From contig JAZDJN010000027.1 in assembly GCA_043803945.1 (NCBI GenBank), positions 7,931 through 71,930 on the forward strand: a stretch of 64,000 bases of DNA. The letters run 5' to 3'. This DNA is from a bacterium. GTDB lineage: Bacteria > Bacteroidota > Ignavibacteria > UBA10030. Of this stretch, positions 20,086-55,862 are shown in pieces. The position numbers were made by a program, and so were the translations under genes. Position 1 is the first letter of the stretch, and each line of letters starts with the position of its first letter. Under the pieces are notes generated by a model. That model worked only from the letters and a program-made list of their open reading frames with translations. It had not been told where the DNA came from and searched no databases.

Positions 20086-21507
20086 TTGTGTGAACGCACT
20101 CCAATCGAAACTGAGAGTCAATGGGAAAGAAATATTTTCCTGCATCAATCCGAAGTGATATCATCCATTTACTTTCTTATATTCTGCACATTATTACTTG
20201 TCATGGATAAACCTCTGATCGTCATCGTTTATAATGGAACAATGGATCGACTGACAAAGGCAATACCTCCCAAATTGATTGCCGCCGGAGCAGTGCTGCT
20301 GCTCGCGTTGCCCGTGGTTGTGTATACACGGCTTGTATTTCTTTATATGGTCAACATTCCATTCCATGATGATTATGAAATCATTCTGGATTTCATGAAT
20401 AAGTATCTCCAGGCCGACACCCTTGGAGAAAAACTCTCATTGCTTTTTTCCCAGCATAACGAACATCGCATGGTGTTTGGGCGAATTGTGGCACTGGTTC
20501 AATATTCCTTGCGTCAGGAGATAAGCCTGAATGACTCTCTGCTGATCGGCAATCTCGGATGGATTTGTGCGATAGCGATTATTATGATCGTTGCACAAAA
20601 GCACTATCGTTTAACTCTGGTCCAACTGTTACCCATTCCCTTCATTCTCCTGATACCGACACACTGGGAAACGATGGTCTTTGCTTCTGCTGCAGCAAAT
20701 TACTGGGTGATCGTTTTTTCACTTGTTTTTATCCTTTGCGTTGTGCACGATCGATTCGTTGGGGCGTGTCTCTTCTACCTCGCGGCGCTTCTGACATTCG
20801 GCAATGGACTGTTGTTGGGCTTGTTGGGACTCTGGTTCTGGGGGCGCCAGAAACGATGGAAACCGTTCTTTGTGTTTGGTGCGCTGATGGTTGTATCTAC
20901 GCTTCTTTATTATGTGAATTACCAGAAGCCGGTCGATCATCCAATGGTTTTCGAAACGATTACACAACCAGGCGCAGTACTATCGTACATCGTTCTGTTT
21001 TGGGGCAGCATTCTCCCAATGAAAATCCCTGCCTTTCTGTTCGGCCTGGGAATGATCATCTACGCGATACTCCATATGCTGAAGAGAAATCGGGATCACT
21101 TCCTGATTATGATTATTCTTTTTGTTGCTCTGACGAGCCTTGCTGCTGCGATCACAAGAAGCGGATTTGGAATCGAGCAGGCGCTCTCATCGAGAAATTC
21201 AATCTACGCACTCCTCCTTGTCGCGTGCTGCTACATTTCTATGATCACCTCAATCAGTCAAACTCAAATCAGGAATGGCGTTGCTCTCGTGATGATTTTT
21301 CTTGCCATACTATTTTGGCACACCAATGCAGCACGGTATGAAACAAAACTGTCGTTAAGAAAGTCTGATCGAATTGCAGGTTTTGCTAAACTCATCGAGA
21401 GGAAAGATCCTGCAAGTCTAATTCATCCGGATCAAATGCGAGCCGCAGCAATTCTCTTTACTGCCGAGAGTTTACATGTTTATCAGTATAAGCACTGGAA
21501 TCGATGA
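20086..21507 (+). CDS. Polytopic integral membrane protein (>=10 TM), possibly a GT-C-like glycosyltransferase or polymerase, first gene of the exopolysaccharide-like cluster
   Basis: Continuous strongly hydrophobic ORF with a soluble C-terminal ~90 aa. The probable start is the ATG at 20203 (MDKPLIV). I recognise no family with confidence. Confidence 0.45.
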   Translation: MCERTPIETESQWERNIFLHQSEVISSIYFLIFCTLLLVMDKPLIVIVYNGTMDRLTKAIPPKLIAAGAVLLLALPVVVYTRLVFLYMVNIPFHDDYEIILDFMNKYLQADTLGEKLSLLFSQHNEHRMVFGRIVALVQYSLRQEISLNDSLLIGNLGWICAIAIIMIVAQKHYRLTLVQLLPIPFILLIPTHWETMVFASAAANYWVIVFSLVFILCVVHDRFVGACLFYLAALLTFGNGLLLGLLGLWFWGRQKRWKPFFVFGALMVVSTLLYYVNYQKPVDHPMVFETITQPGAVLSYIVLFWGSILPMKIPAFLFGLGMIIYAILHMLKRNRDHFLIMIILFVALTSLAAAITRSGFGIEQALSSRNSIYALLLVACCYISMITSISQTQIRNGVALVMIFLAILFWHTNAARYETKLSLRKSDRIAGFAKLIERKDPASLIHPDQMRAAAILFTAESLHVYQYKHWNR

Positions 21508-21532
21508 ATACCTCACCGCATGGGACTGTCGT

Positions 21533-22699
21533 ATGAAAAAAATTGCAGTCATATTCGGAACCAGGCCCGATACCATCAAATTGGCACCGGTGATTCTTGA
21601 GTTGCAGAAAAGCAGCAAGCAGTTCAAGGTGCTCACTATTGCCACCGCCCAGCATCGACAGATGCTGGATCAGGTTCTTTCGGTGTTTCATATTACTCCC
21701 GATTATGATTTGAATATCATGCAGGCAAAACAATCGCTTGCGAGCATCGTGCACAATACCATCAAAGCACTCGATGCGATTCTGGAGCAGGAACGACCTG
21801 ATCTCGTCCTGGTTCAGGGCGATACCACAACGACATTTGTCGGAAGCCTGGCAGCTTTTTACAGAAAGATTCCTGTCGGTCATGTCGAGGCAGGTTTACG
21901 GACGTATGATAAATTCAATCCATTTCCCGAGGAAATTAATCGCCGGCTCACAGGCACACTGACTGATCTGCATTTTGCGCCGACACAAACTTCAAAACGC
22001 GCTCTCCTCAAAGAGAACATCCATCCGAAATCCATCTTTGTCACAGGGAATACCGTTATTGATGCATTGAAGATGACGGTGACCCGTAGGCATACATTTT
22101 CATTGCCGGTATTGACTACGATTCTTGCTCAAAAGAAACGAATCATTTTGGTGACGCTCCACAGGCGGGAAAATTGGGGCGAACCGATGAAGAGCGCATG
22201 CCGGGCAATCCGAGCAATTTCTGAGCAGCATCAGGACATCAATATTATTTTCCCTGTCCACTTAAACCCGATAGTTCAGGAAGTTGTCCATGCAACATTA
22301 GGTAATCTTGATAATGTTTACCTGGTCGCTCCGTTGGAATACCCTGATTTTGTCAATGTGATTGCCAGGTCGTTTCTTATCATCACGGATTCTGGTGGAG
22401 TTCAGGAGGAAGGCCCGCATTTTGGAATACCGATTCTGGTGATAAGAAAAGTTACAGAACGGCCAGAGGCAGTTGAGTATGGGACTGTGAAACTCGTCGG
22501 TACCGGGGAGAAAAAGCTTTTATCCGCCGCAGAGCGTCTTATCACCAACACGCATGAGTATCGTAAGATGGCTTCTGCCATCAATCCTTATGGCGACGGC
22601 CTCTCTTCAAAACGAATTGTTCAGATCATAAAATACTCGCTTGGCATATCACGGACGAAAATCAAAGAATTTGTCCCTGGTAAGAAGAGAAAGCAATGA
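21533..22699 (+). CDS. wecB: UDP-N-acetylglucosamine 2-epimerase (non-hydrolysing)
   Basis: The N-terminus 'MKKIAVIFGTRPDTIKLAPVI', 'TAQHRQMLDQVL...DYDLNIM', 'HVEAGLRT', 'TGNTVIDAL' and 'ITDSGGVQEE' give a canonical WecB/MnaA motif series. Confidence 0.85.
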   Translation: MKKIAVIFGTRPDTIKLAPVILELQKSSKQFKVLTIATAQHRQMLDQVLSVFHITPDYDLNIMQAKQSLASIVHNTIKALDAILEQERPDLVLVQGDTTTTFVGSLAAFYRKIPVGHVEAGLRTYDKFNPFPEEINRRLTGTLTDLHFAPTQTSKRALLKENIHPKSIFVTGNTVIDALKMTVTRRHTFSLPVLTTILAQKKRIILVTLHRRENWGEPMKSACRAIRAISEQHQDINIIFPVHLNPIVQEVVHATLGNLDNVYLVAPLEYPDFVNVIARSFLIITDSGGVQEEGPHFGIPILVIRKVTERPEAVEYGTVKLVGTGEKKLLSAAERLITNTHEYRKMASAINPYGDGLSSKRIVQIIKYSLGISRTKIKEFVPGKKRKQ

Positions 22700-22730: not shown

Positions 22731-25700
22731 TTGATAAACCATTGCACGGAGATGTTTCACGGAAAAGCAGCAGTGATATCAACCGCATGCCGTTGTCTTG
22801 TTCTCATAGTTATTCTTCTATGGTGCTCAGCAACCACATCATATTCGCTTCCTCAATCCAAGACGAAAAATATAATCATTCTGGTAGAAGGGGATACCAA
22901 TCTTAAGAGCATTCCGATGGCCGGCGGGCGGCAGTTAGCAACTCTCTTTGGCCATTTCGATGTGAAAAGTACAATCAAAGGTGTTAATCAATATACCGCA
23001 GGAGAGATGAACGGTTATGATCTTGTATACTACCTCGGTGACAAATTCAAGAATACTCCACCAACGAACTTTCTGAACGATATTCTCACCACGCGCAAAG
23101 ATATTGTCTGGTTGAATACCGGCTTCGCTGAGTTCTCCAAGACCCATGATGTTCAGAAGACATTTGGATTTTCTGTCAGCGCCATTGATTCTTCCTCCGG
23201 CTATGAGATTGTCAAGTCCGGGACCAAGGTATTCACCAAAGGTGATAAACCGACTGCGGTGATCCAGATTGCCGATAGGGAATTAGTTAAGGTATTGGCG
23301 ACCACATATTCTCCCTCTCGAAAGAAAGAAATTCCCTACATCGTCAAGTCGAAGAACCTCACATATATTGGCGACTCTCCCTTCTCCTATGCCAGCGAGA
23401 CCGACCGCTATCTCCTCTTCGCTGATATGCTGCATGATATCCTCGGTGAGCAGCATGAGGAATCCCATTCGGCGATTATCCGTATCGAAGATATCAGTCC
23501 CATGGATGATCCAGAGAGACTCCGTGATATTGCCGATCTGTTTGCCTCCCACAATGTCCCGTTCCTCGTCGGCGTGATTCCGTTCTATGTCAATCCTTCC
23601 ACCGGAACCCGGCTCGGATTATCTGATAAACCGGAGCTGGTGGATGCGCTCAAATATGTGGTGCACAACGGCGGTGCGCTGGTAATGCATGGCAGCACGC
23701 ATCAATATAAAGGAGTGACAGCTTCGGATTTCGAATTCTGGAATCAGATGACGAATAAACCAATCGCCGATGAATCGGAATCAACCTTCTCGAAAAAGAT
23801 TGAGTCGGGCATTCAGGAATTCATGAAAAACGGCCTCTACCCGATCGTATGGGAGACCCCCCACTATACCGGATCCTTTCTATTGTACAAGACCATTGCG
23901 AAATACTTCAGCAGTGCAATGGAGCCGCGATTGGCGATTGAAGATATTGACCAAAGCCAGTTCTTCCCTTACATCATTGCGAAAGATCTCTTTGGTCAAA
24001 AGCTCTATCCTGAGAATCTTGGCTATGTTCCGTTCGATGAGGATCCACGAATCGGCGAGGAAGCAGTTCAAACGATTTTAAGAGGTGCCAAAGCAAACCT
24101 TGCTGTGCGTGACGGGTTTGCTGCTTGTTTTTTTCATTCCTTCAATGAACTCGATTTACTTGAAGAGCTCGTGGATGGTATTCTTGCGCTTGGTTATAAA
24201 TTTTATGATTTGCGTGATCAGAATAATTGGGTAAAGACATCCGACAGAATAATTCTGACCGGAAGCCAGGACTATACACTGAAACTCAACGGGCAGTATC
24301 TCTCCGAAGCGTACTACGATGTTGACGGGCAAATAAAACAGGAGCTGTATTCAGAGAACAGAATTGATGGCACAATCACCAAATCGATCTCACTGGCACC
24401 GGGTGAACTCTACCGCGCAGAACCGGTGGAGTACCGTGAACGGAAGCTGACGATGACTGAGAAACTTGCCAACAGCCTCGATCGTGCGTACCAGCATATC
24501 TTCACTTCAACCGATGTGTGGAAGGAAGCCCGTGTTGCCATTCTCTGGAATCATTATGCGCGCGGCTCGGCGTACAATGATCAGGCTTCTTTCGCTTCCA
24601 CATTTCAGAGCATCAACATTAAGGTCGATACTATTTTCCTTGGACAGCAGATCAATCTTCAACCGTATAACCTGGTTGTCGTACCGTATGTTTTCATCGA
24701 CTCCCTTTCGGAGAGTGATTACACAACTCTTGCGGATTACGTGAAACGTGGTGGGAATATGATCACCGACACGAAAAGCTCTCTGACTGATCATTTCGGC
24801 ATCAAGTTTAGTGAGACAAAAATCAGAATTCGCAGGATCCGCGACCGATTTTTCCCGGAAGAGGCAATCGCCTGGCGTTATGCCGAACTGGTCAATAAAA
24901 TTGAGATCGATGATCCCGACGAGATCTTGTGCTCTGATGAGGTTACCCAAATGCCGATGGTGATTGGGAAGCACGTTGGGAAAGGGAAAATCATCTTTTT
25001 CAATTCCCGATTCGATCCTTACTCTCAACAGGGCTATAGTCTCTACCCGTATCTTCTCGAGTATGTGAGAAAGTTCTTTAATCTCTCGCCGATTGTTCGG
25101 AGAGATAACCTCGAAGTATATTTCGATACTGGATTCCGGATAAATTTCAGTACAGAAAATCTGATCAAGCAATGGGTGACACAGGGGATTCGGATTATCC
25201 ATGCCGCCGGCTGGCATCAATACCCCCACTTTACATTTGATTATCGGCGCCTGATCGACCTGGCCCATGCCAATGGAATGCTGGTGTATGCCTGGCTTGA
25301 ACCGCCGCAGGTGAGTCAGAAGTTCTGGCTTGAACATCCGGAGTGGCGTGAGAAAAATTATAAAAATCTCGATGTCCAACCTTCATGGCGGTACCCTGTT
25401 GCGATGACAGATCCAAAATGCCTTGAAGCCCTTGCACAAGAGTTCAACACTCTTCTGGAGCAGTACGACTGGGATGGTGTGAATTTGGCAGAACTCTATT
25501 TTGAGGCTGGAAAAGGGCTGCAGGAGCCGAACCTTTTTACACCCATGCATCCCTCGGCAAAAAGTGAAATCTTTAGAAAATATGGAATCGATATGAATAC
25601 GGTGTTCGATTCAACATCGGCATCGTATTGGAAGCATCACCCTTCCGTCGAGAATTCCATTACCACATACCGGGTCAATAAGCTCCGTGAGGTCTATGAA

Positions 25701-26726
25701 CTTCTTTTGTCGATGTTCGAAAGGATTGCCCAACAGAAGGCTGGCTTCGAGATTATGGTCACAGCCATGGAAAGTCTCGGGTCTCCGGAATTGCGGGAAT
25801 ACATTGGCGTGGATATGAAGAGTATTCTAGAACTCCAGAAAAAATTTCAATTTACTTTACAGATAGAAGATCCAGAGCTTCGCTGGTCATCTAATCCGCA
25901 GCGCTATATTGAAATTGGGAATCGGTACAGGGGGCTTCTTGGCGGAGATTCCAAACTGGCACTGGACCTCAATATTCTCACCTTCAGGAAGGGAAATGTT
26001 GTCACACCGTTTCCCACATTGATTCAAACCGGTACGGAATGTTTTCAGTTGATTCGGGCTGCTGCTTTGGGTGCCCCACGATTCACGATCTATTCCGAGT
26101 CCAGTGTGAATCCTCAGGACATGACGTTCCTCCCATTTGCTGCCTCGCCGCACGTACAATATCGGTATATCCAAAATGGGTTTGAATTTTATTCCCCCTA
26201 TTCTTTTACCTTACAGCTTCCACCGGCAATCACCATCATTACCGTCGATGGAGCATTACTCGTACCACATCGCGAAAATCTGTTTACCATTCCGGCGGGA
26301 ACACATTCGGTTCGTCTGTCACGTGAGTCCATTGGTTCGTTTTCCGCAAGCGACCTCCAGGCAAAAATTCTTTCCTGCAGCGGGAATCTTACTTCTGTGC
26401 TGTACGGGATGCACGATATGAAGTTTACCTATGAATCAACGACCCGGACATTGATTTCGGTGAATCGCAAACCAACAGCCATCAAAGTCGACCAGCAGGA
26501 GTATCACCCCACCGTAATGAAGGGGAATGATTGCTTCACAATTTTCCTGCCGCCAGGGAACCATGAGGTTGAGTTAAGAGCGGGCGATGCTATTTCGTAC
26601 GGCATCAATCTGACATCCATCTGGTCGTCGACCGGCATTGCGATCTTTGGCACTCTCGCGGTAGCGATGCTTTTCGTTATGTACCTTCTTTTAAAAACCC
26701 TTCGAAAAAAGTATTCATCCGTCTGA
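22731..26726 (+). CDS. Giant (1331-aa) membrane-anchored multidomain protein with a deacetylase-like (DUF2334-like) region and a GH-like TIM-barrel (GHL10-like) region
   Basis: It has an N-terminal signal/anchor and a C-terminal TM helix ('IAIFGTLAVAMLFVMYLLL'). The region 'IRIEDISPMDDPERLRDIADLFASHNVPFLVGVIPFY...LVMHGSTHQY' resembles predicted polysaccharide deacetylases. The region 'IHAAGWHQYPHF...MLVYAWLEP...DWDGVNLAELYFE' resembles glycosyl-hydrolase-like TIM barrels. Confidence 0.55.
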   Translation: MINHCTEMFHGKAAVISTACRCLVLIVILLWCSATTSYSLPQSKTKNIIILVEGDTNLKSIPMAGGRQLATLFGHFDVKSTIKGVNQYTAGEMNGYDLVYYLGDKFKNTPPTNFLNDILTTRKDIVWLNTGFAEFSKTHDVQKTFGFSVSAIDSSSGYEIVKSGTKVFTKGDKPTAVIQIADRELVKVLATTYSPSRKKEIPYIVKSKNLTYIGDSPFSYASETDRYLLFADMLHDILGEQHEESHSAIIRIEDISPMDDPERLRDIADLFASHNVPFLVGVIPFYVNPSTGTRLGLSDKPELVDALKYVVHNGGALVMHGSTHQYKGVTASDFEFWNQMTNKPIADESESTFSKKIESGIQEFMKNGLYPIVWETPHYTGSFLLYKTIAKYFSSAMEPRLAIEDIDQSQFFPYIIAKDLFGQKLYPENLGYVPFDEDPRIGEEAVQTILRGAKANLAVRDGFAACFFHSFNELDLLEELVDGILALGYKFYDLRDQNNWVKTSDRIILTGSQDYTLKLNGQYLSEAYYDVDGQIKQELYSENRIDGTITKSISLAPGELYRAEPVEYRERKLTMTEKLANSLDRAYQHIFTSTDVWKEARVAILWNHYARGSAYNDQASFASTFQSINIKVDTIFLGQQINLQPYNLVVVPYVFIDSLSESDYTTLADYVKRGGNMITDTKSSLTDHFGIKFSETKIRIRRIRDRFFPEEAIAWRYAELVNKIEIDDPDEILCSDEVTQMPMVIGKHVGKGKIIFFNSRFDPYSQQGYSLYPYLLEYVRKFFNLSPIVRRDNLEVYFDTGFRINFSTENLIKQWVTQGIRIIHAAGWHQYPHFTFDYRRLIDLAHANGMLVYAWLEPPQVSQKFWLEHPEWREKNYKNLDVQPSWRYPVAMTDPKCLEALAQEFNTLLEQYDWDGVNLAELYFEAGKGLQEPNLFTPMHPSAKSEIFRKYGIDMNTVFDSTSASYWKHHPSVENSITTYRVNKLREVYELLLSMFERIAQQKAGFEIMVTAMESLGSPELREYIGVDMKSILELQKKFQFTLQIEDPELRWSSNPQRYIEIGNRYRGLLGGDSKLALDLNILTFRKGNVVTPFPTLIQTGTECFQLIRAAALGAPRFTIYSESSVNPQDMTFLPFAASPHVQYRYIQNGFEFYSPYSFTLQLPPAITIITVDGALLVPHRENLFTIPAGTHSVRLSRESIGSFSASDLQAKILSCSGNLTSVLYGMHDMKFTYESTTRTLISVNRKPTAIKVDQQEYHPTVMKGNDCFTIFLPPGNHEVELRAGDAISYGINLTSIWSSTGIAIFGTLAVAMLFVMYLLLKTLRKKYSSV

Positions 26727-26745: not shown

Positions 26746-28005
26746 ATGTCTGTTTTAGAAATCGATCTCAGTTTTCTCTTCCTCATCGCAGTCATCCTGA
26801 TCTGGTTTATGATCGGCTATCAGTTCGTACTGACGCTCTTTGGGTATATCAATTTTATCCGATCCTTAAGGGAGAAGAACGAGATCGATCAGATGTCGTT
26901 TCAATTCCCTCTTTGTACGATCCTCATTCCGGCACATAATGAAGAAAAGGTCATTGCCAAAACGATCGAGTCGATGTTGAAGCTGAAGTATCCGAAGGAA
27001 CAACTCCAGATTGTCGTTATTAACGACGGCTCGACAGATGCAACGAAGGAGATTAGTGCGAGATGTGCCAGAGAAGACTCACGGGTGGAATTGTACGATA
27101 TTCCCCTCGGTGAAGGCGGTAAAGGAAAATCGAGAACATTGAATCTGGGGCTCAGTGCTGCCCGCGGTGACATTATTGCCATCTACGATGCTGACAACAC
27201 GCCACATGAAGATTCACTCCGCTATCTCGTGTCGCAATTGCTTCTGCATAAGGAGCTTGGCGCTGTGCTCGGGAAATTCCGGACGGTGAATAAAAACAGG
27301 AATTGGCTGACGAAGTTCATTAATATCGAAACCTTAAGTTTTCAGTCCATGCTTCAGGCAGGGAGATGGCAAATGCATAACATTGCCACGCTTCCCGGAA
27401 CGAACTACGTGGTGTGGAGCTGGCTGATCAGAAAATTAGAAGGTTGGGATGAAGAGGCGCTGACGGAAGATTCTGAGCTGAGTATCCGGATGTACGAAGA
27501 GGGATATAAAATTAAATTCATCCCGTATGCTATTACCTATGAACAGGAACCCGAAGAGTGGAAGGTGTGGATTAAGCAGAGGGTTCGATGGGTACGCGGC
27601 AATAATTATGTGCTCTTAAAATTCCTCAAACATATTCCAAAGTTCAAGAATCGACGGCTGGCGTTCGACATCCTCTACACCCTTGCTCTGTACTATATCT
27701 TTTTTGCAGCTATTGTAGTCTCCGACCTTCTGTTCCTGATTGGATTGTTCAACCTAGTCAGTATCTCTCTTCCCGGTCCGTACACGTTTGTCTGGCTTAT
27801 TGCTTTTATCCTCTTCATCCTGGAAATCATTCTAGCAATCTCATTTGACGAAGAGGATAGTTTCAAGCAAATCTGGTTTATTGTGCTCATGTATTTCTCG
27901 TACTGCCAGTTGTGGATTTATATCGTGGTGAAGGCTGTCTATGCGGAGTGGATTAAAAAAGAAAAACGGACTTGGACAAAAACGATCCGGTTTGATACAG
28001 AATGA
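26746..28005 (+). CDS. Processive family-2 glycosyltransferase (PgaC/IcaA/NodC/cellulose-synthase-like polysaccharide synthase)
   Basis: N-terminal TM, then 'ILIPAHNEEKVIAKTIESMLKLKYP...IVVINDGSTD', 'IYDADNT' (DXD) and 'QRVRWVRG' (Q-x-x-R-W), followed by 3-4 C-terminal TM helices. Confidence 0.8.
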   Translation: MSVLEIDLSFLFLIAVILIWFMIGYQFVLTLFGYINFIRSLREKNEIDQMSFQFPLCTILIPAHNEEKVIAKTIESMLKLKYPKEQLQIVVINDGSTDATKEISARCAREDSRVELYDIPLGEGGKGKSRTLNLGLSAARGDIIAIYDADNTPHEDSLRYLVSQLLLHKELGAVLGKFRTVNKNRNWLTKFINIETLSFQSMLQAGRWQMHNIATLPGTNYVVWSWLIRKLEGWDEEALTEDSELSIRMYEEGYKIKFIPYAITYEQEPEEWKVWIKQRVRWVRGNNYVLLKFLKHIPKFKNRRLAFDILYTLALYYIFFAAIVVSDLLFLIGLFNLVSISLPGPYTFVWLIAFILFILEIILAISFDEEDSFKQIWFIVLMYFSYCQLWIYIVVKAVYAEWIKKEKRTWTKTIRFDTE

Positions 28006-28060: not shown

Positions 28061-29497
28061 ATGAAGAGATCTCCTCAACGAATACCATTCATCCTGTTTT
28101 GTCTTCTCGTGTGTGTTCTTTCCCTGCACTCTCAGAAAGTTCGGAACGATAGTCAAACGAAGAGCAACAACGCAGCAAGTACACTGAGAAGTCAGTATGA
28201 AACCCGGCTCTCTCAGATATTCCTCACCAACGTCACCCGTCAGAAGCACTACGTCGATTCGCTTTCACGAGAGATTATCAAGCTTCGTGATATACTGCAG
28301 AGAGGTGTCAGTAAAGTCCATGACACGCTCATTGTTGCTGCAGCTCGTCTGTTCAATGCTTTGAGGAGAGATTCATTGCAGCGAACCTCTTTCCTGTTGA
28401 CACAACCTTTTCAATCGTTGACAGATCGCTGGAACACTCTCTCAGGTAATTTACTCAATCGTGAAACAACGTTTCTTAAGGCACAGCAATCCTTATTCGG
28501 TCGATCGTCGATTTCAGATCAGGATGAATCTGTTGAAAGGATAGAGGAGTATTCATCGATTGCGGATAGTGTTTCTGAGATGGTTCTTGATTCGAGTTCC
28601 TGCTTTTTCGATACAATCATAGACAATCTCACCGAAGCTGCCGATGCTGCACGCGACTCGTTGGAGTCCGTCTATTGGCTTCTGGAGGAGGATCAACAGA
28701 AGGAGAATGATCTTCTTGCAGAGCGCCAGGAAGCGATTGCAGACAGTCTTGCCGAGGTGAAGGAACATGCTTCGAGACTTGTTGTTTCGATGTACTATAA
28801 TCACCATGCAACGTATCGCGGCCGCGATAATGGGATTAGCTATAATTCATTTGTTCCAACCCTCACGTATACTCATCGATCGGGATTTTCTCTTGGGCTG
28901 ATGGGAATCATTTTCCCCAATCACCCTGAGCGTCGTTATGAAGGTACCGGAGTAAGTCTGGGTTACTCGGGAGAAATTGCTGCTGTGGTGAGTTCCAGCA
29001 TTACCTATACGCATTTTTGGTTTGGCAAGAACAGTGCGGAACCGCGCTCCTATATGAACGATAACCTCTGGGCTGATTTGGATATAAACCTCGGCAGCTT
29101 TTCCATGAATCTTGCATCAACGTATGATATAGGATCAAAATCCGAATTCAATGGTATCCTTACTTCGATGGTTCTTCTTGATCTTGGTAAACCATTCGGA
29201 GCAGACAGGTTCGTCGGCGGCCCGGTGCTTTCGGCGCTCTACGGGCAACAGGATGCAACCTTAACGAGTGTTCGATTAACCATCTTGAAAAAGAGAACGA
29301 TCTCCACAACCGTCACCGAAGAGAAAAAAGTGTTTGGAGTTCTCTGCTATGAGCCGATGTTGATCCTCAGTTATCAGAAGGGGGGATTCAATCTGAAACC
29401 GTCGCTGGTATATGAAATTCCATTAAATGTTGTCGATAATAGCACCTCTCATCCCTTTCTCAATGTGACCTTGGAGATGAGTTATACCATCCGTTAA
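28061..29497 (+). CDS. Secreted protein with a helical N-terminal half and a beta-strand-rich C-terminal half; putative outer-membrane export barrel of the polysaccharide system
   Basis: Signal peptide (FCLLVCVLSLHSQ). Residues ~30-230 are Leu/Glu/Arg/Gln-rich helical sequence. Residues ~240-478 show an alternating hydrophobic pattern ('FSLGLMGIIF', 'GVSLGYSGEIAAVVSS', 'LTSMVLLDLG', 'KPSLVYEIPL', ...). Confidence 0.4.
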   Translation: MKRSPQRIPFILFCLLVCVLSLHSQKVRNDSQTKSNNAASTLRSQYETRLSQIFLTNVTRQKHYVDSLSREIIKLRDILQRGVSKVHDTLIVAAARLFNALRRDSLQRTSFLLTQPFQSLTDRWNTLSGNLLNRETTFLKAQQSLFGRSSISDQDESVERIEEYSSIADSVSEMVLDSSSCFFDTIIDNLTEAADAARDSLESVYWLLEEDQQKENDLLAERQEAIADSLAEVKEHASRLVVSMYYNHHATYRGRDNGISYNSFVPTLTYTHRSGFSLGLMGIIFPNHPERRYEGTGVSLGYSGEIAAVVSSSITYTHFWFGKNSAEPRSYMNDNLWADLDINLGSFSMNLASTYDIGSKSEFNGILTSMVLLDLGKPFGADRFVGGPVLSALYGQQDATLTSVRLTILKKRTISTTVTEEKKVFGVLCYEPMLILSYQKGGFNLKPSLVYEIPLNVVDNSTSHPFLNVTLEMSYTIR

Positions 29498-29636: not shown

Positions 29637-30158
29637 ATGAAAATCAGAATGTTGCTTGCGGTTCTTTTGGTACTCTGCTTTGCACAGATGCTTGTTGGTC
29701 AGCAATCGAATCCCGTCTGGGAGAAGTGGCAGTATTTGCTCGGCACATGGATTGGTGAAGGAAGCGGTCAACCGGGACAAGGTAGCGGCTCATTTACATT
29801 CCAAACTGATCTTAGCGGCTCGGTCATCATCCGGAAAAGTCAAACAACCTTTCCTGCGACCAAGGATAAAGGAGCAAGCCTTCATGAGGATTTGTTAATT
29901 ATCTATTTGGATTATTCTGGAGTGCCTTCAAAAGCAATTTACTTCGATAATGAACGACACGCCATCAACTATACCGTTATGTATCGTGATCAAGTGATCG
30001 TGTTCACCAGTGAAAGTATCAAAAATGCTCCACGATTTCGGTTATCCTACGAGCCGATTGATCGCAATATCGTGAATACCAAATTTGAGATCGCCTCGCC
30101 TCAGAATCAGGATGAGTTTAAAACCTATATCGAAGGGAAATCCAGAAGGAAAGAATAA
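29637..30158 (+). CDS. Small secreted hypothetical protein
   Basis: 173 aa with a signal peptide (LLVLCFAQMLVGQ) and a Gly-rich segment, 'GEGSGQPGQGSGSF'. Confidence 0.4.
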   Translation: MKIRMLLAVLLVLCFAQMLVGQQSNPVWEKWQYLLGTWIGEGSGQPGQGSGSFTFQTDLSGSVIIRKSQTTFPATKDKGASLHEDLLIIYLDYSGVPSKAIYFDNERHAINYTVMYRDQVIVFTSESIKNAPRFRLSYEPIDRNIVNTKFEIASPQNQDEFKTYIEGKSRRKE

Positions 30159-33089: not shown

Positions 33090-35357
33090 ATGAAGATTAC
33101 CGTTCGTCTTATTATATCGCTTTTCATAGCGGCCGCCTTTGTTGCTGCTGTGTTTTCCTACCTTCAGGTTCAGAATGAACGAGATCTCCTTGTTCAAGAC
33201 CTAACGAGCCGGGCGCGTGTCCTTGGTGAAAGTATGGAGGAAACCATCAAGGAATACATTCAAGCGAATGCAATGGCAAAACTTAAAAGCACGATATATC
33301 GATTCGGCAGAAGGACAAAACTCCTTGGAATTGCAGTTTATGATAATCAAGGGGCGGGTATTGCTTTCAGTCCAGCGCTGGATTCTACATTCTCGACAAC
33401 TCCCCCGGAAGTCTGGGAATCAATCACAAGCCTAAAAGCTGTCAGTGGAATGAAGGAGGTGAGCGGTAATACTGTCCATTTATATGTTCATCCCCTGATG
33501 GCTGACTCGTCGATTGTTGGAGCGTTACTGTTCTACCATGATGTTTCCTTTATTGATGCAAAGCTCCAGGGGATCTGGCAGACAAACTTTATTCGTCTGC
33601 TTACGCATTTTTTCCTAATTATCGTGACGACCATTCTTGTCGTACGATGGAGTATCAAAGGCCCCATTGCACAAATTGCCCATTGGATGCGCGGTTTACG
33701 AACGGGAAAATCTTATCAAACAATCCCAATTCCACGGGGTGATCTTCTTGAACCGTTAGCCAATGAAGTCTCACTGCTTGCAAAAAGCCTCACACAAGCA
33801 CGAACCGCTGCTCAGGAAGAGGCACGTCTGCGTATAGAAGCCGAGTCACTTTGGACCTCAGAACGGCTAAAGGAACATGTCAAAATTGAGTTAAACGGGA
33901 AAAATCTTTTCGTTATCTCCAACCGCGAGCCCTATATGCATATGATAATGGGAGGAACGATTCAGTGTATCGTTCCGGCGGGCGGATTAGTCACTGCCCT
34001 TGATCCGATTCTGCGTGCGTGCGGGGGTATATGGATTGCCCATGGGAGTGGCACTGCTGACAGAGAGACTGTTGATATGCAGGATCGCGTTCAGGTTCCA
34101 CCAGAGGATCCGACATATTCATTGCGACGAGTCTTTCTCACCAAAGAGGAGGAAGAGGGATACTATTACGGGTTCTCCAACGAAGGGATATGGCCGCTCT
34201 GTCATATTACACACACTCGTCCCACATTTAAATTACAAGATTGGGTTCATTATCAAAATGTCAATGAGCAATTTGCAAAAGCGTTGTTAGAAGAAATCCG
34301 AAATGAAGAATCTCCCCTGATTTTGATTCAGGATTATCATTTTGCTCTCCTTCCATTATTGATTAAATCCAAACGCCCGGATGCGAGGGTGGCGATCTTC
34401 TGGCATATTCCCTGGCCCAATCCCGAAGTGTTCGGCATTTGTCCCTGGAAACAGGAATTGCTGCTTGGTTTACTCGGCGCGGATCTTATCGGGTTTCATA
34501 TCCAATTTCACTGCAACAATTTCCTTGAGACAGTGGATCGTTACTTAGAATCAAAAATCAACTGGGATCAATTTTCCGTTGAGCGGCATGGACAACTCAC
34601 CTCTGTGCGTCCATTTCCTATCAGTGTCGCTCATCCGTATGAGTCTGAAATCAGCACTCAACGGCCAGTCTCTATCGCTACCAAAGAGTCCTTACTCAAA
34701 AAATCTGGAGTTGTTGCTCCCTTCATGGCGTTGGGCGTCGATCGGATAGACTATACAAAGGGAATCGTTGAACGATTCCAGGCAGTGCGGCGATTCCTGG
34801 AAAAATATCCAGAATATGTTGGGAAGTTTACATTCGTTGAACTCGGAGCACCGAGCCGTACGCATATCAAACGCTACCACGACCTGATCGCTGAATTGGA
34901 TGAAACAGTCGATCGCATTAATTGGTCGTTTCAAGCTAAAAATTGGAAACCGATCGTTTTTCTCAAAGCCCACCATGATCACAAAACCATCGGCGATTAT
35001 TATCGGGTTGCCGATGTGTGCATGGTCACTTCTCTTCATGACGGGATGAATCTCGTTGCCAAAGAATTTATTGCAACACGCACCGATGACGATGGTGTTC
35101 TCATTCTCAGTCAATTTGCAGGGGCGGCACGGGAGCTACCCGATGCACTCATCGTTAATCCGTACGATATTGAAGAAATGGCTGAAGCGCTTCATCTGGC
35201 ATTGACGATGGAGAAAAAAGAACAACGTGAACGAATGCAAGAGATGCGAACGGTGGTGAAAGAAAGAAATGTTTACCGGTGGGCAGCGAACATTATAACA
35301 ACCCTCACGCACTTGCGGATGCCCAAGCAACCTGCAGCGATGGAGTCACAACAGTGA
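33090..35357 (+). CDS. otsA: Trehalose-6-phosphate synthase (GT20, OtsA) fused to an N-terminal two-TM periplasmic sensor plus HAMP-like module
   Basis: The C-terminal ~480 aa carry GT20 motifs: 'LILIQDYHFALLPLLIK', 'IFWHIPWPNPEVFGICPW', 'LLGADLIGFHIQFH', 'GVDRIDYTKGI' and 'ILSQFAGAARELPDALIVNPYDIEEMAEAL'. The N-terminal ~270 aa comprise TM1 (res 7-25), a ~140-aa extracytoplasmic region, TM2 ('FIRLLTHFFLIIVTTILVV') and a HAMP-like helix-connector-helix ('GPIAQIAHWMRGL...PRGDLLEPLANEVSLLAKSL'). Confidence 0.8.
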   Translation: MKITVRLIISLFIAAAFVAAVFSYLQVQNERDLLVQDLTSRARVLGESMEETIKEYIQANAMAKLKSTIYRFGRRTKLLGIAVYDNQGAGIAFSPALDSTFSTTPPEVWESITSLKAVSGMKEVSGNTVHLYVHPLMADSSIVGALLFYHDVSFIDAKLQGIWQTNFIRLLTHFFLIIVTTILVVRWSIKGPIAQIAHWMRGLRTGKSYQTIPIPRGDLLEPLANEVSLLAKSLTQARTAAQEEARLRIEAESLWTSERLKEHVKIELNGKNLFVISNREPYMHMIMGGTIQCIVPAGGLVTALDPILRACGGIWIAHGSGTADRETVDMQDRVQVPPEDPTYSLRRVFLTKEEEEGYYYGFSNEGIWPLCHITHTRPTFKLQDWVHYQNVNEQFAKALLEEIRNEESPLILIQDYHFALLPLLIKSKRPDARVAIFWHIPWPNPEVFGICPWKQELLLGLLGADLIGFHIQFHCNNFLETVDRYLESKINWDQFSVERHGQLTSVRPFPISVAHPYESEISTQRPVSIATKESLLKKSGVVAPFMALGVDRIDYTKGIVERFQAVRRFLEKYPEYVGKFTFVELGAPSRTHIKRYHDLIAELDETVDRINWSFQAKNWKPIVFLKAHHDHKTIGDYYRVADVCMVTSLHDGMNLVAKEFIATRTDDDGVLILSQFAGAARELPDALIVNPYDIEEMAEALHLALTMEKKEQRERMQEMRTVVKERNVYRWAANIITTLTHLRMPKQPAAMESQQ

Positions 35358-36193
35358 AGAATCCGGTCTATCTATTTTCAGGACGACGAGAATCATGGGA
35401 CGCGATCGCCCGGAAATTACGCGCTGCTTCCGGCATAGCTCTATTTCTTGATTACGATGGAACATTGACCCCGATCCGGCGGACGCCATCAGCGGCAGTT
35501 CTTACACCGGACGTAAAGAACATTTTACAGCAGTTGGCACAACTTCCGGATGTGTGCGTCGCTATCGTCACCGGCAGGTCAATGAGGGATATCCAGAAAC
35601 TCGTTCGTGTAGATACCCTCGGATTTGCCGCAAATCATGGTTTCCATATGGATATCAATGGAATTGACTGGATTCATCCTCAAGCTGTATCTCAGAAGAA
35701 AGTACTGTCACGACTTCACTCGATTCTTTGCAACGCACTTGCAGCATTTCCTGAACTCTATATTGAGAACAAACAATTCACATTAAGTATTCATTATAGG
35801 AATGTTGCTGCACATCATGTCCGTTCCCTCAAAGCACTGGTTTCGAAAACCGTACACTCATTTAATCCGACACTACAAATAACTCGCGGAAAGAAAATAT
35901 TGGAAGTAAGACCTCAAATACCATGGGGAAAGGGAGATGCTGTTTTAGCAATGTTAAATTTGAGTAAGACTTCTCAACGCCGGATCCCGCTGTTTATCGG
36001 CGATGATACAACAGATGAGGATGTCTTTCGAGCCTTGCGTTCGAAAGGGATAACGATACGGGTGGGAAGGGCGCGATCTACAAATGCGCAATACTATGTG
36101 AAGAGCGTCAAGGAAGTTCACGATATACTTCGATTGATCATCTCTCTCAGAGAGAATCGTTCTATCCGCACTCGTTCACGTCAGAAGAAATAA
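35354..36193 (+). CDS. otsB: Trehalose-6-phosphate phosphatase (HAD superfamily)
   Basis: HAD motif I is 'LFLDYDGTLTP' and motif IV is 'FIGDDTTDEDVF'. The probable GTG start overlaps the otsA stop in a GTGA overlap, suggesting translational coupling. The ORF is open from 35279. Confidence 0.8.
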   Translation: MKNPVYLFSGRRESWDAIARKLRAASGIALFLDYDGTLTPIRRTPSAAVLTPDVKNILQQLAQLPDVCVAIVTGRSMRDIQKLVRVDTLGFAANHGFHMDINGIDWIHPQAVSQKKVLSRLHSILCNALAAFPELYIENKQFTLSIHYRNVAAHHVRSLKALVSKTVHSFNPTLQITRGKKILEVRPQIPWGKGDAVLAMLNLSKTSQRRIPLFIGDDTTDEDVFRALRSKGITIRVGRARSTNAQYYVKSVKEVHDILRLIISLRENRSIRTRSRQKK

Positions 36194-36208
36194 GGAAGGA
36201 ACATCAGC

Positions 36209-37417
36209 ATGCATGCATTAGAAGAATACCGGGACATTGTCGGTGATGATGTTATCGCAGAAATCTATCGTTTAGCTCGTCCGCTATATGGTAAGAAAAT
36301 CCTTCATATCAATTCCACCTACTATGGAGGCGGTGTTGCAGAGATCCTCTATTCACTTGTGCCACTTCTGAATGCCGCCGGTCTTGATGCCGACTGGAGA
36401 ATGTTGCGAGGTACTCCGGAATTTTTCAACGTCACAAAGAAATTCCACAACGCTATTCAGGGTGAATCGATCCGAATGACCGACATCAAGGCAGCGCTCT
36501 ATTCCGAGAATAATCAGGACTTTGCATCGTATTGCAAGATCGATGCCGATTGTGTGATCATTCATGATCCTCAACCATTACCACTGATCCGTTTTTATAA
36601 GAAACGCCAACCCTGGCTCTGGAGGTGTCACGTTGATCTCTCGCATCCAAACCAAGATCTCTGGCACTTTCTCAAAGGGTATATCCTTGCCTATGATGGT
36701 ATCATTGTCTCCGATGAACAGTATGTTCAAAAAGATCTTCCGATGAACTATACTATCATCGATCCTGCTATTGATCCACTCTCCTCGAAGAATAGAGTTA
36801 TCCCGGAGGACCTAATAGAACGGACGCTTCAGAAGTATGATGTCCCCACTGATAAACCATTTATTACTCAAATATCAAGATTTGACAAGTGGAAAGATCC
36901 TGAAAATGTTATTGAAGTATATAAACTTGTGCGGAAGGAATGCGATTGTCGGTTAATACTGTGTGGAAGCATGGCAACGGATGATCCGGAAGGCTGGGAA
37001 TATTTCGAGCGAACGAGGAAGGCAGCAGGATCGTACCTTGATAATAAGGATATCATATTGATTACAGTAGAGGACAATATTTTGGTCAATGCACTCCAGA
37101 GTAAGTCGACCATCATTCTTCAAAAATCGATACGGGAAGGATTCGGGCTCACGGTCACTGAAGCGCTCTGGAAGGGCAAGCCAGTAGTTGCATCGAATGT
37201 TGGCGGTATTCCCCGGCAGTTGATTGATAATAAAACGGGATTTCTCGTGGAGCCGCTAGATATCCAGGGTTGTGCCGATATCGTGAGTACGATTCTAAAG
37301 AATCCAAAGTTGGGTCAGGCACTTGGTGTGAATGGTAAAGAACACGTTCGAAAAAACTTTCTCATCACCCGGCATGTGATTGATGATCTAAAGCTGCTCA
37401 ATAAAATATTGAGTTGA
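36209..37417 (+). CDS. treT: Trehalose glycosyltransferring synthase (TreT-type, GT4; NDP-glucose + glucose -> trehalose)
   Basis: 'HINSTYYGGGVAEILYSLVPLL', 'FFNVTKKFHNAIQG', 'PWLWRCHVDLSHPN' and 'IREGFGLTVTEALWKGKPVVASNVGGIPRQ' closely match the motif set I recall for archaeal and Thermotoga TreT. Confidence 0.6.
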   Translation: MHALEEYRDIVGDDVIAEIYRLARPLYGKKILHINSTYYGGGVAEILYSLVPLLNAAGLDADWRMLRGTPEFFNVTKKFHNAIQGESIRMTDIKAALYSENNQDFASYCKIDADCVIIHDPQPLPLIRFYKKRQPWLWRCHVDLSHPNQDLWHFLKGYILAYDGIIVSDEQYVQKDLPMNYTIIDPAIDPLSSKNRVIPEDLIERTLQKYDVPTDKPFITQISRFDKWKDPENVIEVYKLVRKECDCRLILCGSMATDDPEGWEYFERTRKAAGSYLDNKDIILITVEDNILVNALQSKSTIILQKSIREGFGLTVTEALWKGKPVVASNVGGIPRQLIDNKTGFLVEPLDIQGCADIVSTILKNPKLGQALGVNGKEHVRKNFLITRHVIDDLKLLNKILS

Positions 37418-53672: not shown

Positions 53673-55862
53673 ATGAACCTGGGTAAACATTTTTTCAACT
53701 TGCTTCTTGCACTTATCATTTCACAGGTATCATTTTCACAATCGAACCGGATCACCTATAACAATCAACGACTGTTTCTCAGCGGTGCTAATCTCGCATG
53801 GCTCAGTTTTGCGGGAGATATTGGACCGACACAGGCCAATTATGCAAAGTTCGGAGAAATACTTCTTATGATGCATGACAGCGGCGGGAATTCGATGCGT
53901 TGGTGGCTTCATACCAATGGCACTATCAGTCCGCAATTCAATGATTCGGGGTATGTTATTGGACCGGGAGATGGTACTCTTGATGATTTGAAGAAAGTGT
54001 TGGATCTCGCCTGGGAGCGAGAAATTGGATTGAAACTGTGTCTCTGGTCGTTTGACATGCTTCGCTCTTCCAATAATAGTACAGTTCTCAATCGAAACAG
54101 GCTGATGTTGAATGATACCAACTACACCCGCGCCTATATTAAGAATTGTCTCATTCCATTGGTCAATGCGCTGAAAGGGCATCCCGCGATCGTTGCATGG
54201 GAAATATTTAATGAACCAGAGGGCATGAGCAATGAATTTGGATGGAGCGAAATCCAGCACGTCCCCATGGCCTCTATTCAACGATTCGTTAATCTCTGTG
54301 CTGGAGCGATTCACCGTGCAGATCCGGCAGCTAAAGTGACGAATGGCTGCTGGGCGTTTCTTGCACTCACCGATGTGGCGACAACTTCCATCTCCTTGGG
54401 AAAGATTGGCATAGACCTCTCACAACTGGGTATTGCCGAGAGAGAGGATATGGAAAAACGGTTTACGGATAAATATGGGATAACGCTCACCGCGGAAGAA
54501 ATAGTGCAGCACTATCAACGCGCTGCTCTGCAAGCAAACTATAATTATTACTCCGACAGCCGTCTCATTGCTGCAGGTGGAGATGTTCAGGGAACACTCG
54601 ATTTCTACTCCGTGCATTATTATGATTGGGCAGGGACGTCTCTTTCTCCTTTCAGCCGGCCTGCACTGTTTTGGAATCTGGATAAGCCGATCGTCGTTGC
54701 TGAATTCCATATGAAAGATACATTCGGTGTTCCCAAACAGTATCTCTTTGAAGTCTTGTTCCAGAATGAATATGCAGGTGCCCTGCCATGGTCGTGGACG
54801 GATAACGCCGTCACGAAAGTTGAAGATATGCTGGCTGGAATGAAGTATATGTGGGATAATCATAAGAACGATGTGGATGTTCTCGGCATCGGGGGAGATT
54901 GGCCAATTGTAACGCTTACAGCTCCTGCTCCTGAAACAAAATTTGCCGACACTGCAAAAGTCGTCATTACAGCCGAGGCGTCGGATAAGGATGGTTCTGT
55001 AGCCCGGGTGGAGTTTTTTATCTCGGATACTGTGAGAATTGGAGAGGCCATAACACCGCCGTATACGATGACCTGGTCGAATTTGAAATCAGGATTATAC
55101 GTGATTACAGCAGCAGCGACCGATGACAAGGGTCACAAGCGGATCTCCAAGGGAGTTCAGATCCAGGTGGGTGCGCTTCAGATGACAAGACTGGAAGCCG
55201 AAGGTGCAATCCGATCTGGCACACCGACTGTTCGAAGCGATCCGACAGCAAGCCGTGGTTCCTATGTCACCATGCAGCAGACCGGCACTATTACATGGAC
55301 AATCCCCAGTGTGCCTAAAGATGGAGCTTATGAAATCGTGTTTCGATACAGATTATCTTATAATACACCAAAGAATCAGTATATCAATATCAATGGAGTA
55401 CGTATAACAGAACTGGCATTCACGGGAACAACGAATACATGGCTCGATAAATCATTAACGGTTAATCTTACTGCCGGGCAGAATATTGTACAAATGGAAT
55501 TATCCTGGGGATGGATGGATGTCGATTACCTCTCCGTCCCGGTCACATTCCTCACATCGGTGAAGAGCAACAATGAGCTTCCACTCTATTTTTCTCTTGA
55601 GCAGAATTACCCGAATCCGTTTAATGCAATGACAAATGTCGAATTCCGATTGCTGGTGAGGGCCAAGGTGAAACTGAGTGTGTACGATATCCTCTGCCGT
55701 GAAGTGGCAATACTGGCGCATAGCGACCTGGCGGCAGGAACCCATGCAGTACGGTGGGACGCTTCGAATTTCGCCAGCGGAGTTTACTTCTACAGACTCG
55801 AAGTACAAGATGGTTCACCGGCTGGTGTGATTCAGACAAGGAAAATGGTCCTGGCCAAATAG
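53673..55862 (+). CDS. Secreted clan GH-A (GH5-like) mannanase/glycanase with C-terminal beta-sandwich (CBM/Ig-like) domains and T9SS C-terminal sorting domain
   Basis: Signal peptide. The catalytic region carries 'LFLSGANLAW', 'SMRWWLHTNG', 'AWEIFNEPEG' and 'VVAEFHMKD'. The C-terminus 'EQNYPNPFNAMTNVEF...SGVYFYRL...RKMVLAK' is a T9SS CTD. Confidence 0.6.
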   Translation: MNLGKHFFNLLLALIISQVSFSQSNRITYNNQRLFLSGANLAWLSFAGDIGPTQANYAKFGEILLMMHDSGGNSMRWWLHTNGTISPQFNDSGYVIGPGDGTLDDLKKVLDLAWEREIGLKLCLWSFDMLRSSNNSTVLNRNRLMLNDTNYTRAYIKNCLIPLVNALKGHPAIVAWEIFNEPEGMSNEFGWSEIQHVPMASIQRFVNLCAGAIHRADPAAKVTNGCWAFLALTDVATTSISLGKIGIDLSQLGIAEREDMEKRFTDKYGITLTAEEIVQHYQRAALQANYNYYSDSRLIAAGGDVQGTLDFYSVHYYDWAGTSLSPFSRPALFWNLDKPIVVAEFHMKDTFGVPKQYLFEVLFQNEYAGALPWSWTDNAVTKVEDMLAGMKYMWDNHKNDVDVLGIGGDWPIVTLTAPAPETKFADTAKVVITAEASDKDGSVARVEFFISDTVRIGEAITPPYTMTWSNLKSGLYVITAAATDDKGHKRISKGVQIQVGALQMTRLEAEGAIRSGTPTVRSDPTASRGSYVTMQQTGTITWTIPSVPKDGAYEIVFRYRLSYNTPKNQYININGVRITELAFTGTTNTWLDKSLTVNLTAGQNIVQMELSWGWMDVDYLSVPVTFLTSVKSNNELPLYFSLEQNYPNPFNAMTNVEFRLLVRAKVKLSVYDILCREVAILAHSDLAAGTHAVRWDASNFASGVYFYRLEVQDGSPAGVIQTRKMVLAK

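Follow-up and report, generated by a model that had tools for sequence, protein, structure and literature searches.

Once in the periplasm, synthase-dependent aminosugar polymers are typically part-deacetylated and shortened through the action of PgaB or PelA (PMC5933820, PMC6307706). PgaB/BpsB, from Escherichia coli and Bordetella, combines a CE4 deacetylase with a GH153 hydrolase and belongs to the poly-N-acetylglucosamine (PNAG) system; PelA, from the Pseudomonas Pel system, is a multidomain hydrolase and deacetylase in which the hydrolase comes first. Another relevant group comprises the DUF2334 proteins, among which we take YdaL (Bacillus subtilis ydaJKLMN) and PssB (Listeria pssA-E) to belong, partly from the name ‘uncharacterized protein YdaL’ that JGI gives to homologues of the protein described here. 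DUF2334 proteins of this YdaL/PssB type are needed for the polysaccharides of Bacillus and Listeria that are controlled by cyclic di-GMP (c-di-GMP). The Listeria Pss polymer is a β-1,4-linked N-acetylmannosamine (ManNAc) chain, with PssB listed as a deacetylase (PMC6307706), and B. subtilis YdaL, YdaM and YdaN are described jointly as supplying exopolysaccharide (EPS) synthesis activities (PMC9800504, PMC5422440). Here we consider a gene at 22731..26726 (+ strand, stop codon included) in a 64,000-nucleotide stretch of Ignavibacteria DNA (contig JAZDJN010000027.1, positions 7,931 to 71,930; hereafter the window), which encodes a 1331-residue protein, referred to below as the large protein, containing both a DUF2334 domain and a glycosidase-like barrel. 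The gene probably specifies the periplasmic processing subunit of a synthase-dependent EPS system that first deacetylates and then cuts a ManNAc-containing polymer, a reading in which we have moderate confidence.

The open reading frame (ORF) is single and uninterrupted, as the initial annotation of the window had it, and the peptides quoted there all lie where it placed them: IRIEDISP... at 250, MHGSTHQY at 319, IHAAGWHQYPHF at 823, LVYAWLEP at 851 and DWDGVNLAELYFE at 913. These five positions count from the TTG start codon at 22731, which has AGGAGA 7 nt 5′ of it and yields the 1331-residue form also deposited as an identical protein at NCBI (P0001); all other residue numbers used here count from an in-frame alternative ATG at 22752, giving 1324 residues, and are lower by 7. 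Related clusters in a protein search numbered 570, and the 120 best of these are nearly all 1300-1355 residues long, with 55-67% identity and 90-100% query coverage. Metagenome-assembled genomes (MAGs) of Ignavibacteriota/Bacteroidota contain over 100 homologues of full length (48–67% identity), and 113 homologues of 1300-1355 residues align end to end (55-66% identity, mean column identity 64%), the alignment being unbroken across every domain junction. In a species scan, with a single genome for each, 316 species proved to have a relative; the top 80 loci match over near full length without exception and come from Ignavibacteriota, other Bacteroidota/Bacteroidales MAGs and a few others, the closest of these 80 being from a Melioribacter sp. 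(67%). Because full-length homologues are so numerous, neither chance nor a frameshift accounts for the ORF. The proposal that an assembly or frameshift artefact has united two genes, in favour of which it can be said that the C-terminal module is also found as a separate ~720-residue protein, can be practically discounted, given the uninterrupted architecture in more than 100 independent assemblies and the continuous alignment over the junctions. A 290-residue antisense ORF (24507-25379, − strand), entirely within the large gene, is most likely spurious.

AlphaFold2 models, run as two halves each with the 113-sequence alignment (residues 36-775, predicted local distance difference test score 90.3, predicted template modelling score 0.88; residues 776-1290, 88.7 and 0.90, respectively), together with hydropathy and conservation, define the following order, all on the + strand. 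A signal peptide (residues 1-32; 22752..22847), assigned from a hydropathy peak at residues ~8-28 and the AxA-type sites of homologues, precedes an α/β domain with a class-I glutamine-amidotransferase (GATase)/ThuA-like fold (residues 36-215; 22857..23396), which is probably non-catalytic, and, in the models, a conserved helix (residues 216-239). The DUF2334 domain, with a CE4-like deacetylase fold (residues 240-480; 23469..24191), is followed by a small β-sandwich, apparent from the secondary structure of the N-terminal half model (residues 492-559; 24225..24428), a modelled helical linker (residues 560-594), and a second α/β domain similar to the middle (trimerisation) domain of GH42 and to GATase1 (residues 595-775; 24534..25076). 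The GH153/GHL10-like (β/α)8 barrel (residues 776-1130; 25077..26141) is succeeded by two β-sandwiches, seen in the secondary structure of the C-terminal half model (residues 1136-1277; 26157..26582), and the chain ends, as judged by hydropathy and conservation, with a juxtamembrane stretch, a transmembrane (TM) helix (~1293-1315) and the basic tail KTLRKKYSSV (residues 1278-1324; 26583..26723). In a Pfam scan that also covered 36 of the 113 homologues, the second α/β domain matched Glyco_hydro_42M (31.2 bits versus a cut-off of 25.8; residues 612-680), this match being partial (model positions 33-97 of 207) and recurring in 36/36 homologues; the C-terminal 650 residues reached the threshold of no Pfam family. 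An NCBIfam scan of the large protein returned no family, and searches of PDB sequences, with the single protein or a profile of the 113 sequences, gave no meaningful match. Alignments by hhalign of the barrel and DUF2334 sub-alignments with the single E. coli PgaB domains were insignificant or mis-registered.

The assignment of the DUF2334 region, which the initial annotation had described as DUF2334-like or polysaccharide-deacetylase-like, is clear at the family level (PF10096, 165.4 bits versus a cut-off of 26, E=1.6e-48; residues 241-476, model positions 2-202 of 203), the match also being present in 36/36 homologues. The modelled domain has the distorted (β/α) barrel deacetylase fold of CE4. 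The Pfam CE4 model Polysacc_deac_1, by contrast with PF10096, has no match at E≤1 in the large protein and was matched in just 4 of the 36 homologues, with a best E of 0.074. CE4 enzymes use an Asp-His-His metal triad, an acidic residue before it and a late His. Among the 113 sequences R244, E246 and D247 (RIED), H313, G314 and H317 (HGxTH), W367, E368, T369, P370, H371 and Y372 (ETPHY being 368-372), R453, D454 and G455, and F460, F461 and H462 are invariant, and these run in the order of the CE4 motifs MT1-MT5, as assigned by inspection. Candidate catalytic or metal-binding residues are E246, D247 (23490-23492), H313 (23688-23690), H317 (23700-23702), PHY 370-372, R453, D454 and H462 (24135-24137), the coordinates being on the + strand; the same motifs are visible in distant DUF2334 relatives from Ralstonia and Streptomyces. 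Full-text literature searches for DUF2334, PF10096 and COG5298 found no account of the function of the domain, and no report of a measured activity for DUF2334 (YdaL/PssB-type) proteins was found; deacetylase chemistry is so far a prediction for every substrate.

The barrel is most similar in structure to the GH153 domain of PgaB/BpsB, Cwp19 and E. coli PgaB, with the best match being the PNAG hydrolase domain of PgaB, and is a (β/α)8 barrel closest to GH153 structures. Homology to GH153 is not detectable at the sequence level; GHL10 (PF02638) is below its gathering cut-off and gave no match at E≤1 for the large protein. The initial view of this region as a GHL10-like TIM barrel holds for the fold of the model, and not for sequence family membership. 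In GH153 the probable catalytic acid, D474 of BpsB, is at the C-terminal end of strand β4, where D466 of E. coli PgaB, D196 of Cwp19 and the acid/base Glu of GH42/GH5 enzymes are its equivalents (PMC5933820, PMC5765458). In the large protein β4 comprises residues 909-913 (GVNLA) and is directly followed by E914 (25491-25493, +), a candidate catalytic acid that is invariant in the 113 sequences; the motifs line up as FDGILFHD(466)D in PgaB and WDGVNLAE(914)L here, with Asp in the former and Glu in the latter. In a broader alignment of the barrel family (122 cluster representatives that are 26-56% identical to the query), conservation is 100% for D908 and G909, 92% for E914 and 88% for D1072, and 92-99% for W821, H839, W848, R866, D1040, W1045, R1051, N1074, E1096, Y1114 and D1123. 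Such a pattern is in keeping with an active site or, at the least, with a groove for the specific binding of sugar.

The latter possibility matters, in that the barrel might not cut at all, acting instead as a binding groove, export chaperone or transglycosylase with DUF2334 as the sole catalytic domain. A binding role is conceivable because PgaB's C-terminal domain also acts in polymer binding and export and was for long seen as a module for these two tasks, and the hydrolase activity of PgaB itself was missed for years; moreover, neither GH153 nor GHL10 has a canonical second catalytic carboxylate (PMC5933820, PMC5765458), and the barrel has no sequence-level family membership. We consider a non-cutting barrel distinctly unlikely, since the conserved polar residues at strand ends among the 122 representatives (D908, E914, D1040, D1072, N1074, E1096, Y1114 and D1123) are of a kind typical of an active site, with E914 at the acid position.

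Both halves of the large protein have relatives that occur alone. The first ~450 residues, i.e. the N-terminal α/β domain and DUF2334, are homologous to short proteins, including those of Ralstonia (578 residues, 32% identity, E=2e-75), Streptomyces (615 residues, 32% identity, E=1e-71) and Bacillus thuringiensis (549 residues, 28% identity). In the Ralstonia operon the gene order is nfrB-like (GT2 + MshEN), nfrA, wecB, hypothetical, DUF2334 gene, hypothetical. This Nfr-like operon is on the Ralstonia solanacearum megaplasmid CP047139.1 (3139-11471), and encodes, besides the short DUF2334 protein, a 299-residue protein with, by eye, GH-A-like ‘GNE’ and ‘GEVG’ motifs; the E. coli nfr operon has YbcH (DUF4434) instead. 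The Streptomyces short DUF2334 gene, which is plasmid-borne, adjoins wecB and a GT2 gene, and linkage of wecB and DUF2334 is seen in three phyla.

At 50% identity, the family to which the C-terminal half belongs comprises 504 clusters, of which 214 are at E≤1e-30, and it takes three formats: the ~1300-residue fusion, a ~1650-residue form and many stand-alone proteins of ~650-840 residues. The last consist of the GH42M-like domain, barrel and sandwiches, and one of them has a near-threshold GHL10 match (E=7.7e-6). In the ~1650-residue form (P0131, P0134 and P0242; 1668-1697 residues) an extra GHL6/GHL10 barrel precedes DUF2334, so that two glycosidase-like barrels flank the deacetylase. In four Bacteroidales MAG loci (L076, L079, L081 and L082) a 728-residue stand-alone paralogue, which has a signal peptide of its own and lacks a C-terminal TM helix, lies beside the fused gene and GT2; the L079 copy is on the minus strand, ~133 nt past GT2. 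The two modules also occurring alone, the sequence comparisons indicate that the large protein arose by fusion, as a YdaL-type deacetylase module joined to a glycosidase-like one that also exists separately, a membrane anchor having been added.

The initial annotation envisaged tethering of the protein at both termini. A 19-residue hydropathy scan identified two hydrophobic segments only, at residues ~8-28 and ~1293-1315 of 1324, the second of which ends 9 residues short of the C terminus. The N termini of homologues are variable (majority-residue frequency 0.21), with a hydrophobic core followed by a small-x-small/AxA-type site, e.g. ...SFA|QEN or ...ATA|QDN, ~6 residues ahead of the first strand; the likely signal-peptidase site in the window protein is after ...TTSYS. 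A lipoprotein N terminus was considered and dropped, no canonical lipobox being apparent by eye. By contrast, the C-terminal helix (majority-residue frequency 0.66) and the 15 preceding juxtamembrane residues (0.81) are conserved on a par with the catalytic domains, and a K/R-rich tail follows the helix in all the homologues displayed. Among cluster representatives, a C-terminal TM helix is present in 25/28 fused forms (at least 1200 residues) versus 7/76 stand-alone forms (600-900 residues). The C-terminal anchor is thus upheld, whereas the N-terminal segment looks like a Sec signal peptide that would be cleaved. Since signal-peptide-like N termini are combined with a conserved C-terminal TM helix and K/R tail, the bulk of the large protein is periplasmic and its tail cytoplasmic, with the mature protein probably held solely by the C-terminal helix.

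Immediately 3′ of the large gene, 20 nt past its end, a 419-residue processive glycosyltransferase of family GT2 (26746..28005, +) is encoded, identified by Pfam GT2 families and PgaC/IcaA-like, with a QRVRW motif. In 82 related loci (L001, L002 and the best 80 of the species scan), a GT2 gene is directly 3′ on the same strand in 75, or in 75 of the 76 in which the contig continues, the contig ending in six of the seven loci without one. As in Yda/Pss-type systems, a YdaL-type protein is thus encoded together with a GT2 synthase. This coupling bears on whether the protein might instead act in cell-wall remodelling or in the breakdown of foreign chitin- or peptidoglycan-like material, as a peptidoglycan deacetylase joined to a lytic enzyme like Cwp19. 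We regard such a role as very improbable, given that the gene is almost always within tens of bases of the same-strand processive GT2 gene, and that the protein is anchored in the inner membrane and not secreted by the type IX secretion system (T9SS), as the degradative enzymes of the window are.

Directly 5′ of the large gene is wecB (21476..22699, +), encoding a non-hydrolysing UDP-N-acetylglucosamine (UDP-GlcNAc) 2-epimerase that would supply UDP-ManNAc (TIGR00236, 497 bits versus a cut-off of 210); wecB occupies this position in 47 of the 82 loci. The full order in the window is polytopic membrane protein, WecB, large protein, GT2 and a 478-residue secreted protein. The conserved core is (wecB)–large gene–GT2, because the window's other flanking genes are not found in related loci: the upstream membrane protein and the 478- and 173-residue ORFs had no tblastn match in the 82. 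One MAG (P0097/L037, JBGOVN010000017.1) has wecB annotated together with the large gene as one ORF of 1613 residues, the wecB match stopping 4 nt before that of the large gene; this could be a real fusion or an assembly error. The Ignavibacteriaceae genome represented by OY759785.1 has two copies of the large gene (L035 and L065), the second (L065) adjoining neither GT2 nor wecB. Promoter and terminator scans over 19.5-30.8 kb did not rise above the shuffle background, and no operon boundaries were drawn.

NfrB has been proposed to polymerise UDP-ManNAc, with wecB linkage being the argument used (PMC8669469). By analogy, the linkage of wecB to the large gene, and to DUF2334 proteins in three phyla, together with the NfrB and Listeria Pss parallels, points to a ManNAc-containing polymer rather than the PNAG-like substrate for which the initial annotation suggested assays. 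Some of the evidence can nonetheless be read as favouring the same kind of system working on a PNAG-like (GlcNAc) polymer, with the protein as a functional equivalent of PgaB on poly-β-1,6-GlcNAc. GT2 has PgaC_IcaA (TIGR03937) as its best named match, over the full length (E=3.4e-44), and shares 28% identity with E. coli PgaC; the best structural match of the barrel is to a PNAG hydrolase; and wecB is not beside the pair in 35 of the 82 loci. Against this, the PgaC_IcaA score (151.4 bits) is far under the family cut-off of 422.3, so that the partner GT2 falls outside the NCBIfam PgaC/IcaA equivalog; a dedicated wecB is directly 5′ both here and in the 47 loci, with one MAG reading the two as one ORF; YdaL-type DUF2334 proteins elsewhere accompany wecB and Nfr-type ManNAc synthases; and PNAG systems use the CE4 proteins PgaB/IcaB rather than DUF2334. 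On balance a PNAG-like polymer appears unlikely.

For the favoured proposal, i.e. processing of a ManNAc-containing polymer, a plausible sequence of events is that WecB makes UDP-ManNAc, which the adjoining PgaC-like GT2 would use in polymerising an N-acetylhexosamine chain, probably with ManNAc, while pushing it across the inner membrane. The large protein would be exported via its cleavable signal peptide and kept attached to the inner membrane by its C-terminal helix, with the basic tail in the cytoplasm. The DUF2334 domain, with its metal-dependent CE4-like fold, may then strip some N-acetyl groups off the emerging chain, and the GH153/GHL10-like barrel may cut or trim the part-deacetylated product, in a division of labour like that in PgaB. 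The two amidotransferase-like and three β-sandwich domains are probably non-catalytic and may be polymer-binding or assembly modules.

Several points weigh against this proposal. In sequence the barrel matches neither GH153 nor GHL10 significantly, the equivalence of E914 to the PgaB acid is drawn from a motif alignment and strand position, and the precedent of PgaB, as discussed above, is one of a domain that binds and exports as well as cuts. At the level of the locus, wecB is outside the immediate neighbourhood in the 35 loci already mentioned, and the named families nearest to GT2 are PNAG synthases; the related loci share no conserved outer-membrane porin beside the pair, and Pfam detected no c-di-GMP receptor domain in neighbouring genes. 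Specifically, the ten flanking ORFs (14571-35357) have no Pfam match to a degenerate-GGDEF receptor (YdaK/PssE), a BcsB-like protein (YdaN/PssD) or a GH8-type hydrolase. More generally, it is the domain folds, conserved residues, topology elements and gene linkage that are observed, and from these we infer the enzymatic activities, the substrate, cleavage of the signal peptide and contact with the synthase.

With respect to the last of these, it may be, though we advance the idea tentatively and hold it to be no better than possible, that the fused protein is an obligatory structural subunit of the synthase, its juxtamembrane stretch, which is unusually conserved, and C-terminal helix packing on GT2 and its periplasmic part providing a conduit for the chain. 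The C-terminal helix of BcsB packs on BcsA and PgaD on PgaC in an analogous manner. If so, the two genes would between them encode a complete, minimal machine of the inner membrane, able to polymerise and translocate a ManNAc-based polymer as well as to deacetylate and trim it.

The analogy with PgaB and PelA drawn in the initial annotation is apt, and the order of the domains is that of PgaB. By contrast with PgaB/BpsB, the deacetylase domain is DUF2334 rather than Pfam CE4, with no detectable sequence similarity; the large protein is twice as long, the two amidotransferase-like and three β-sandwich domains being additional; it has a C-terminal TM anchor; neither PgaA nor PgaD is encoded alongside; and the wecB linkage suggests ManNAc rather than GlcNAc. 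PelA has the reverse domain order, a GH166 barrel, no TM anchor and a polymer rich in N-acetylgalactosamine, all unlike the large protein. It thus differs from both known bifunctional EPS enzymes in deacetylase family, extra domains and size, anchor, likely ManNAc polymer and two- or three-gene core. Cwp19 of Clostridioides difficile, a structurally characterised GHL10 protein, is also distinct, being a cell-wall lytic enzyme with cell-wall-binding repeats. YdaL, PssB and the Ralstonia and Streptomyces short forms are all encoded with a GT2 synthase, and often with wecB, but the short forms, at 550-615 residues, have nothing corresponding to the C-terminal 750 residues of the large protein; in their systems the glycosidase is separate and unrelated, e.g. 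YdaJ, PssZ or, by eye, small GH-A-like ORFs in Ralstonia and Streptomyces. The Yda/Pss systems of Firmicutes in addition carry a c-di-GMP receptor (YdaK/PssE), none being seen among the window neighbours. The claim that the architecture is new therefore needs qualification: it has never been studied, but the family occurs widely and carries the label DUF2334/YdaL in databases already.

The remaining genes around the core are variable. The polytopic membrane protein 5′ of wecB (20086-21507, +, with a probable start near 20212) has no Pfam or NCBIfam family, and at the locus of homologue P0008 a different, 533-residue membrane protein is in the corresponding position. Beyond GT2, a 478-residue secreted protein (28061-29497, +) and a 173-residue secreted protein (29637-30158, +) have no family match. 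The former has a helical N-terminal half and a β-rich C-terminal half, and one weak phmmer relative, in L069, its jackhmmer score being inflated by iteration; it is possible that it is an export component. In 21-24 related loci (e.g. L015 and L028) GT2 is followed by a ~440-residue secreted protein, the ...GIGF ending of which suggests an outer-membrane barrel, and then by a BNR/Ycf48-like repeat protein of 580-1000 residues that bears a T9SS sorting domain. This pair is not present in the window, and the ~440-residue family is unrelated to the 478-residue ORF by hhalign.

Elsewhere in the window, trehalose synthesis genes (33090-37417, +) encode a 755-residue GT20 (OtsA-like) protein, a 304-residue ORF and a TreT-type trehalose synthase, the first of which has its GT20 domain at residues 273-739, together with an extension of the N terminus that is unexplained. 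Secreted carbohydrate-active proteins with T9SS sorting domains are encoded at 963-2501, 53673-55862 and 55931-58027 (all +), and comprise a pectate-lyase-like β-helix, a CBM35 protein and a GH9 cellulase, a set that fits a polysaccharide degrader of the FCB group (Ignavibacteriota).

The family to which the large protein belongs is common in uncultured Ignavibacteriota and has so far been catalogued only as a DUF. The fusion ties DUF2334 to a PgaB-like barrel in one chain, and to a synthase and WecB by gene linkage, an association on account of which DUF2334 may be considered a deacetylase of ManNAc-type polymers, on what we regard as strong guilt-by-association. It thus provides a testable lead on the role of YdaL/PssB-type proteins, as well as on an unannotated glycosidase-like family, the barrel family of ~500 clusters that reaches no Pfam threshold. 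If active, the soluble domains may serve as tools or dispersal enzymes for Pss- and Nfr-type matrices, as PgaB does for PNAG and PelA for Pel, and in the large protein the ‘deacetylate then cut’ design would have been assembled independently for a third time.

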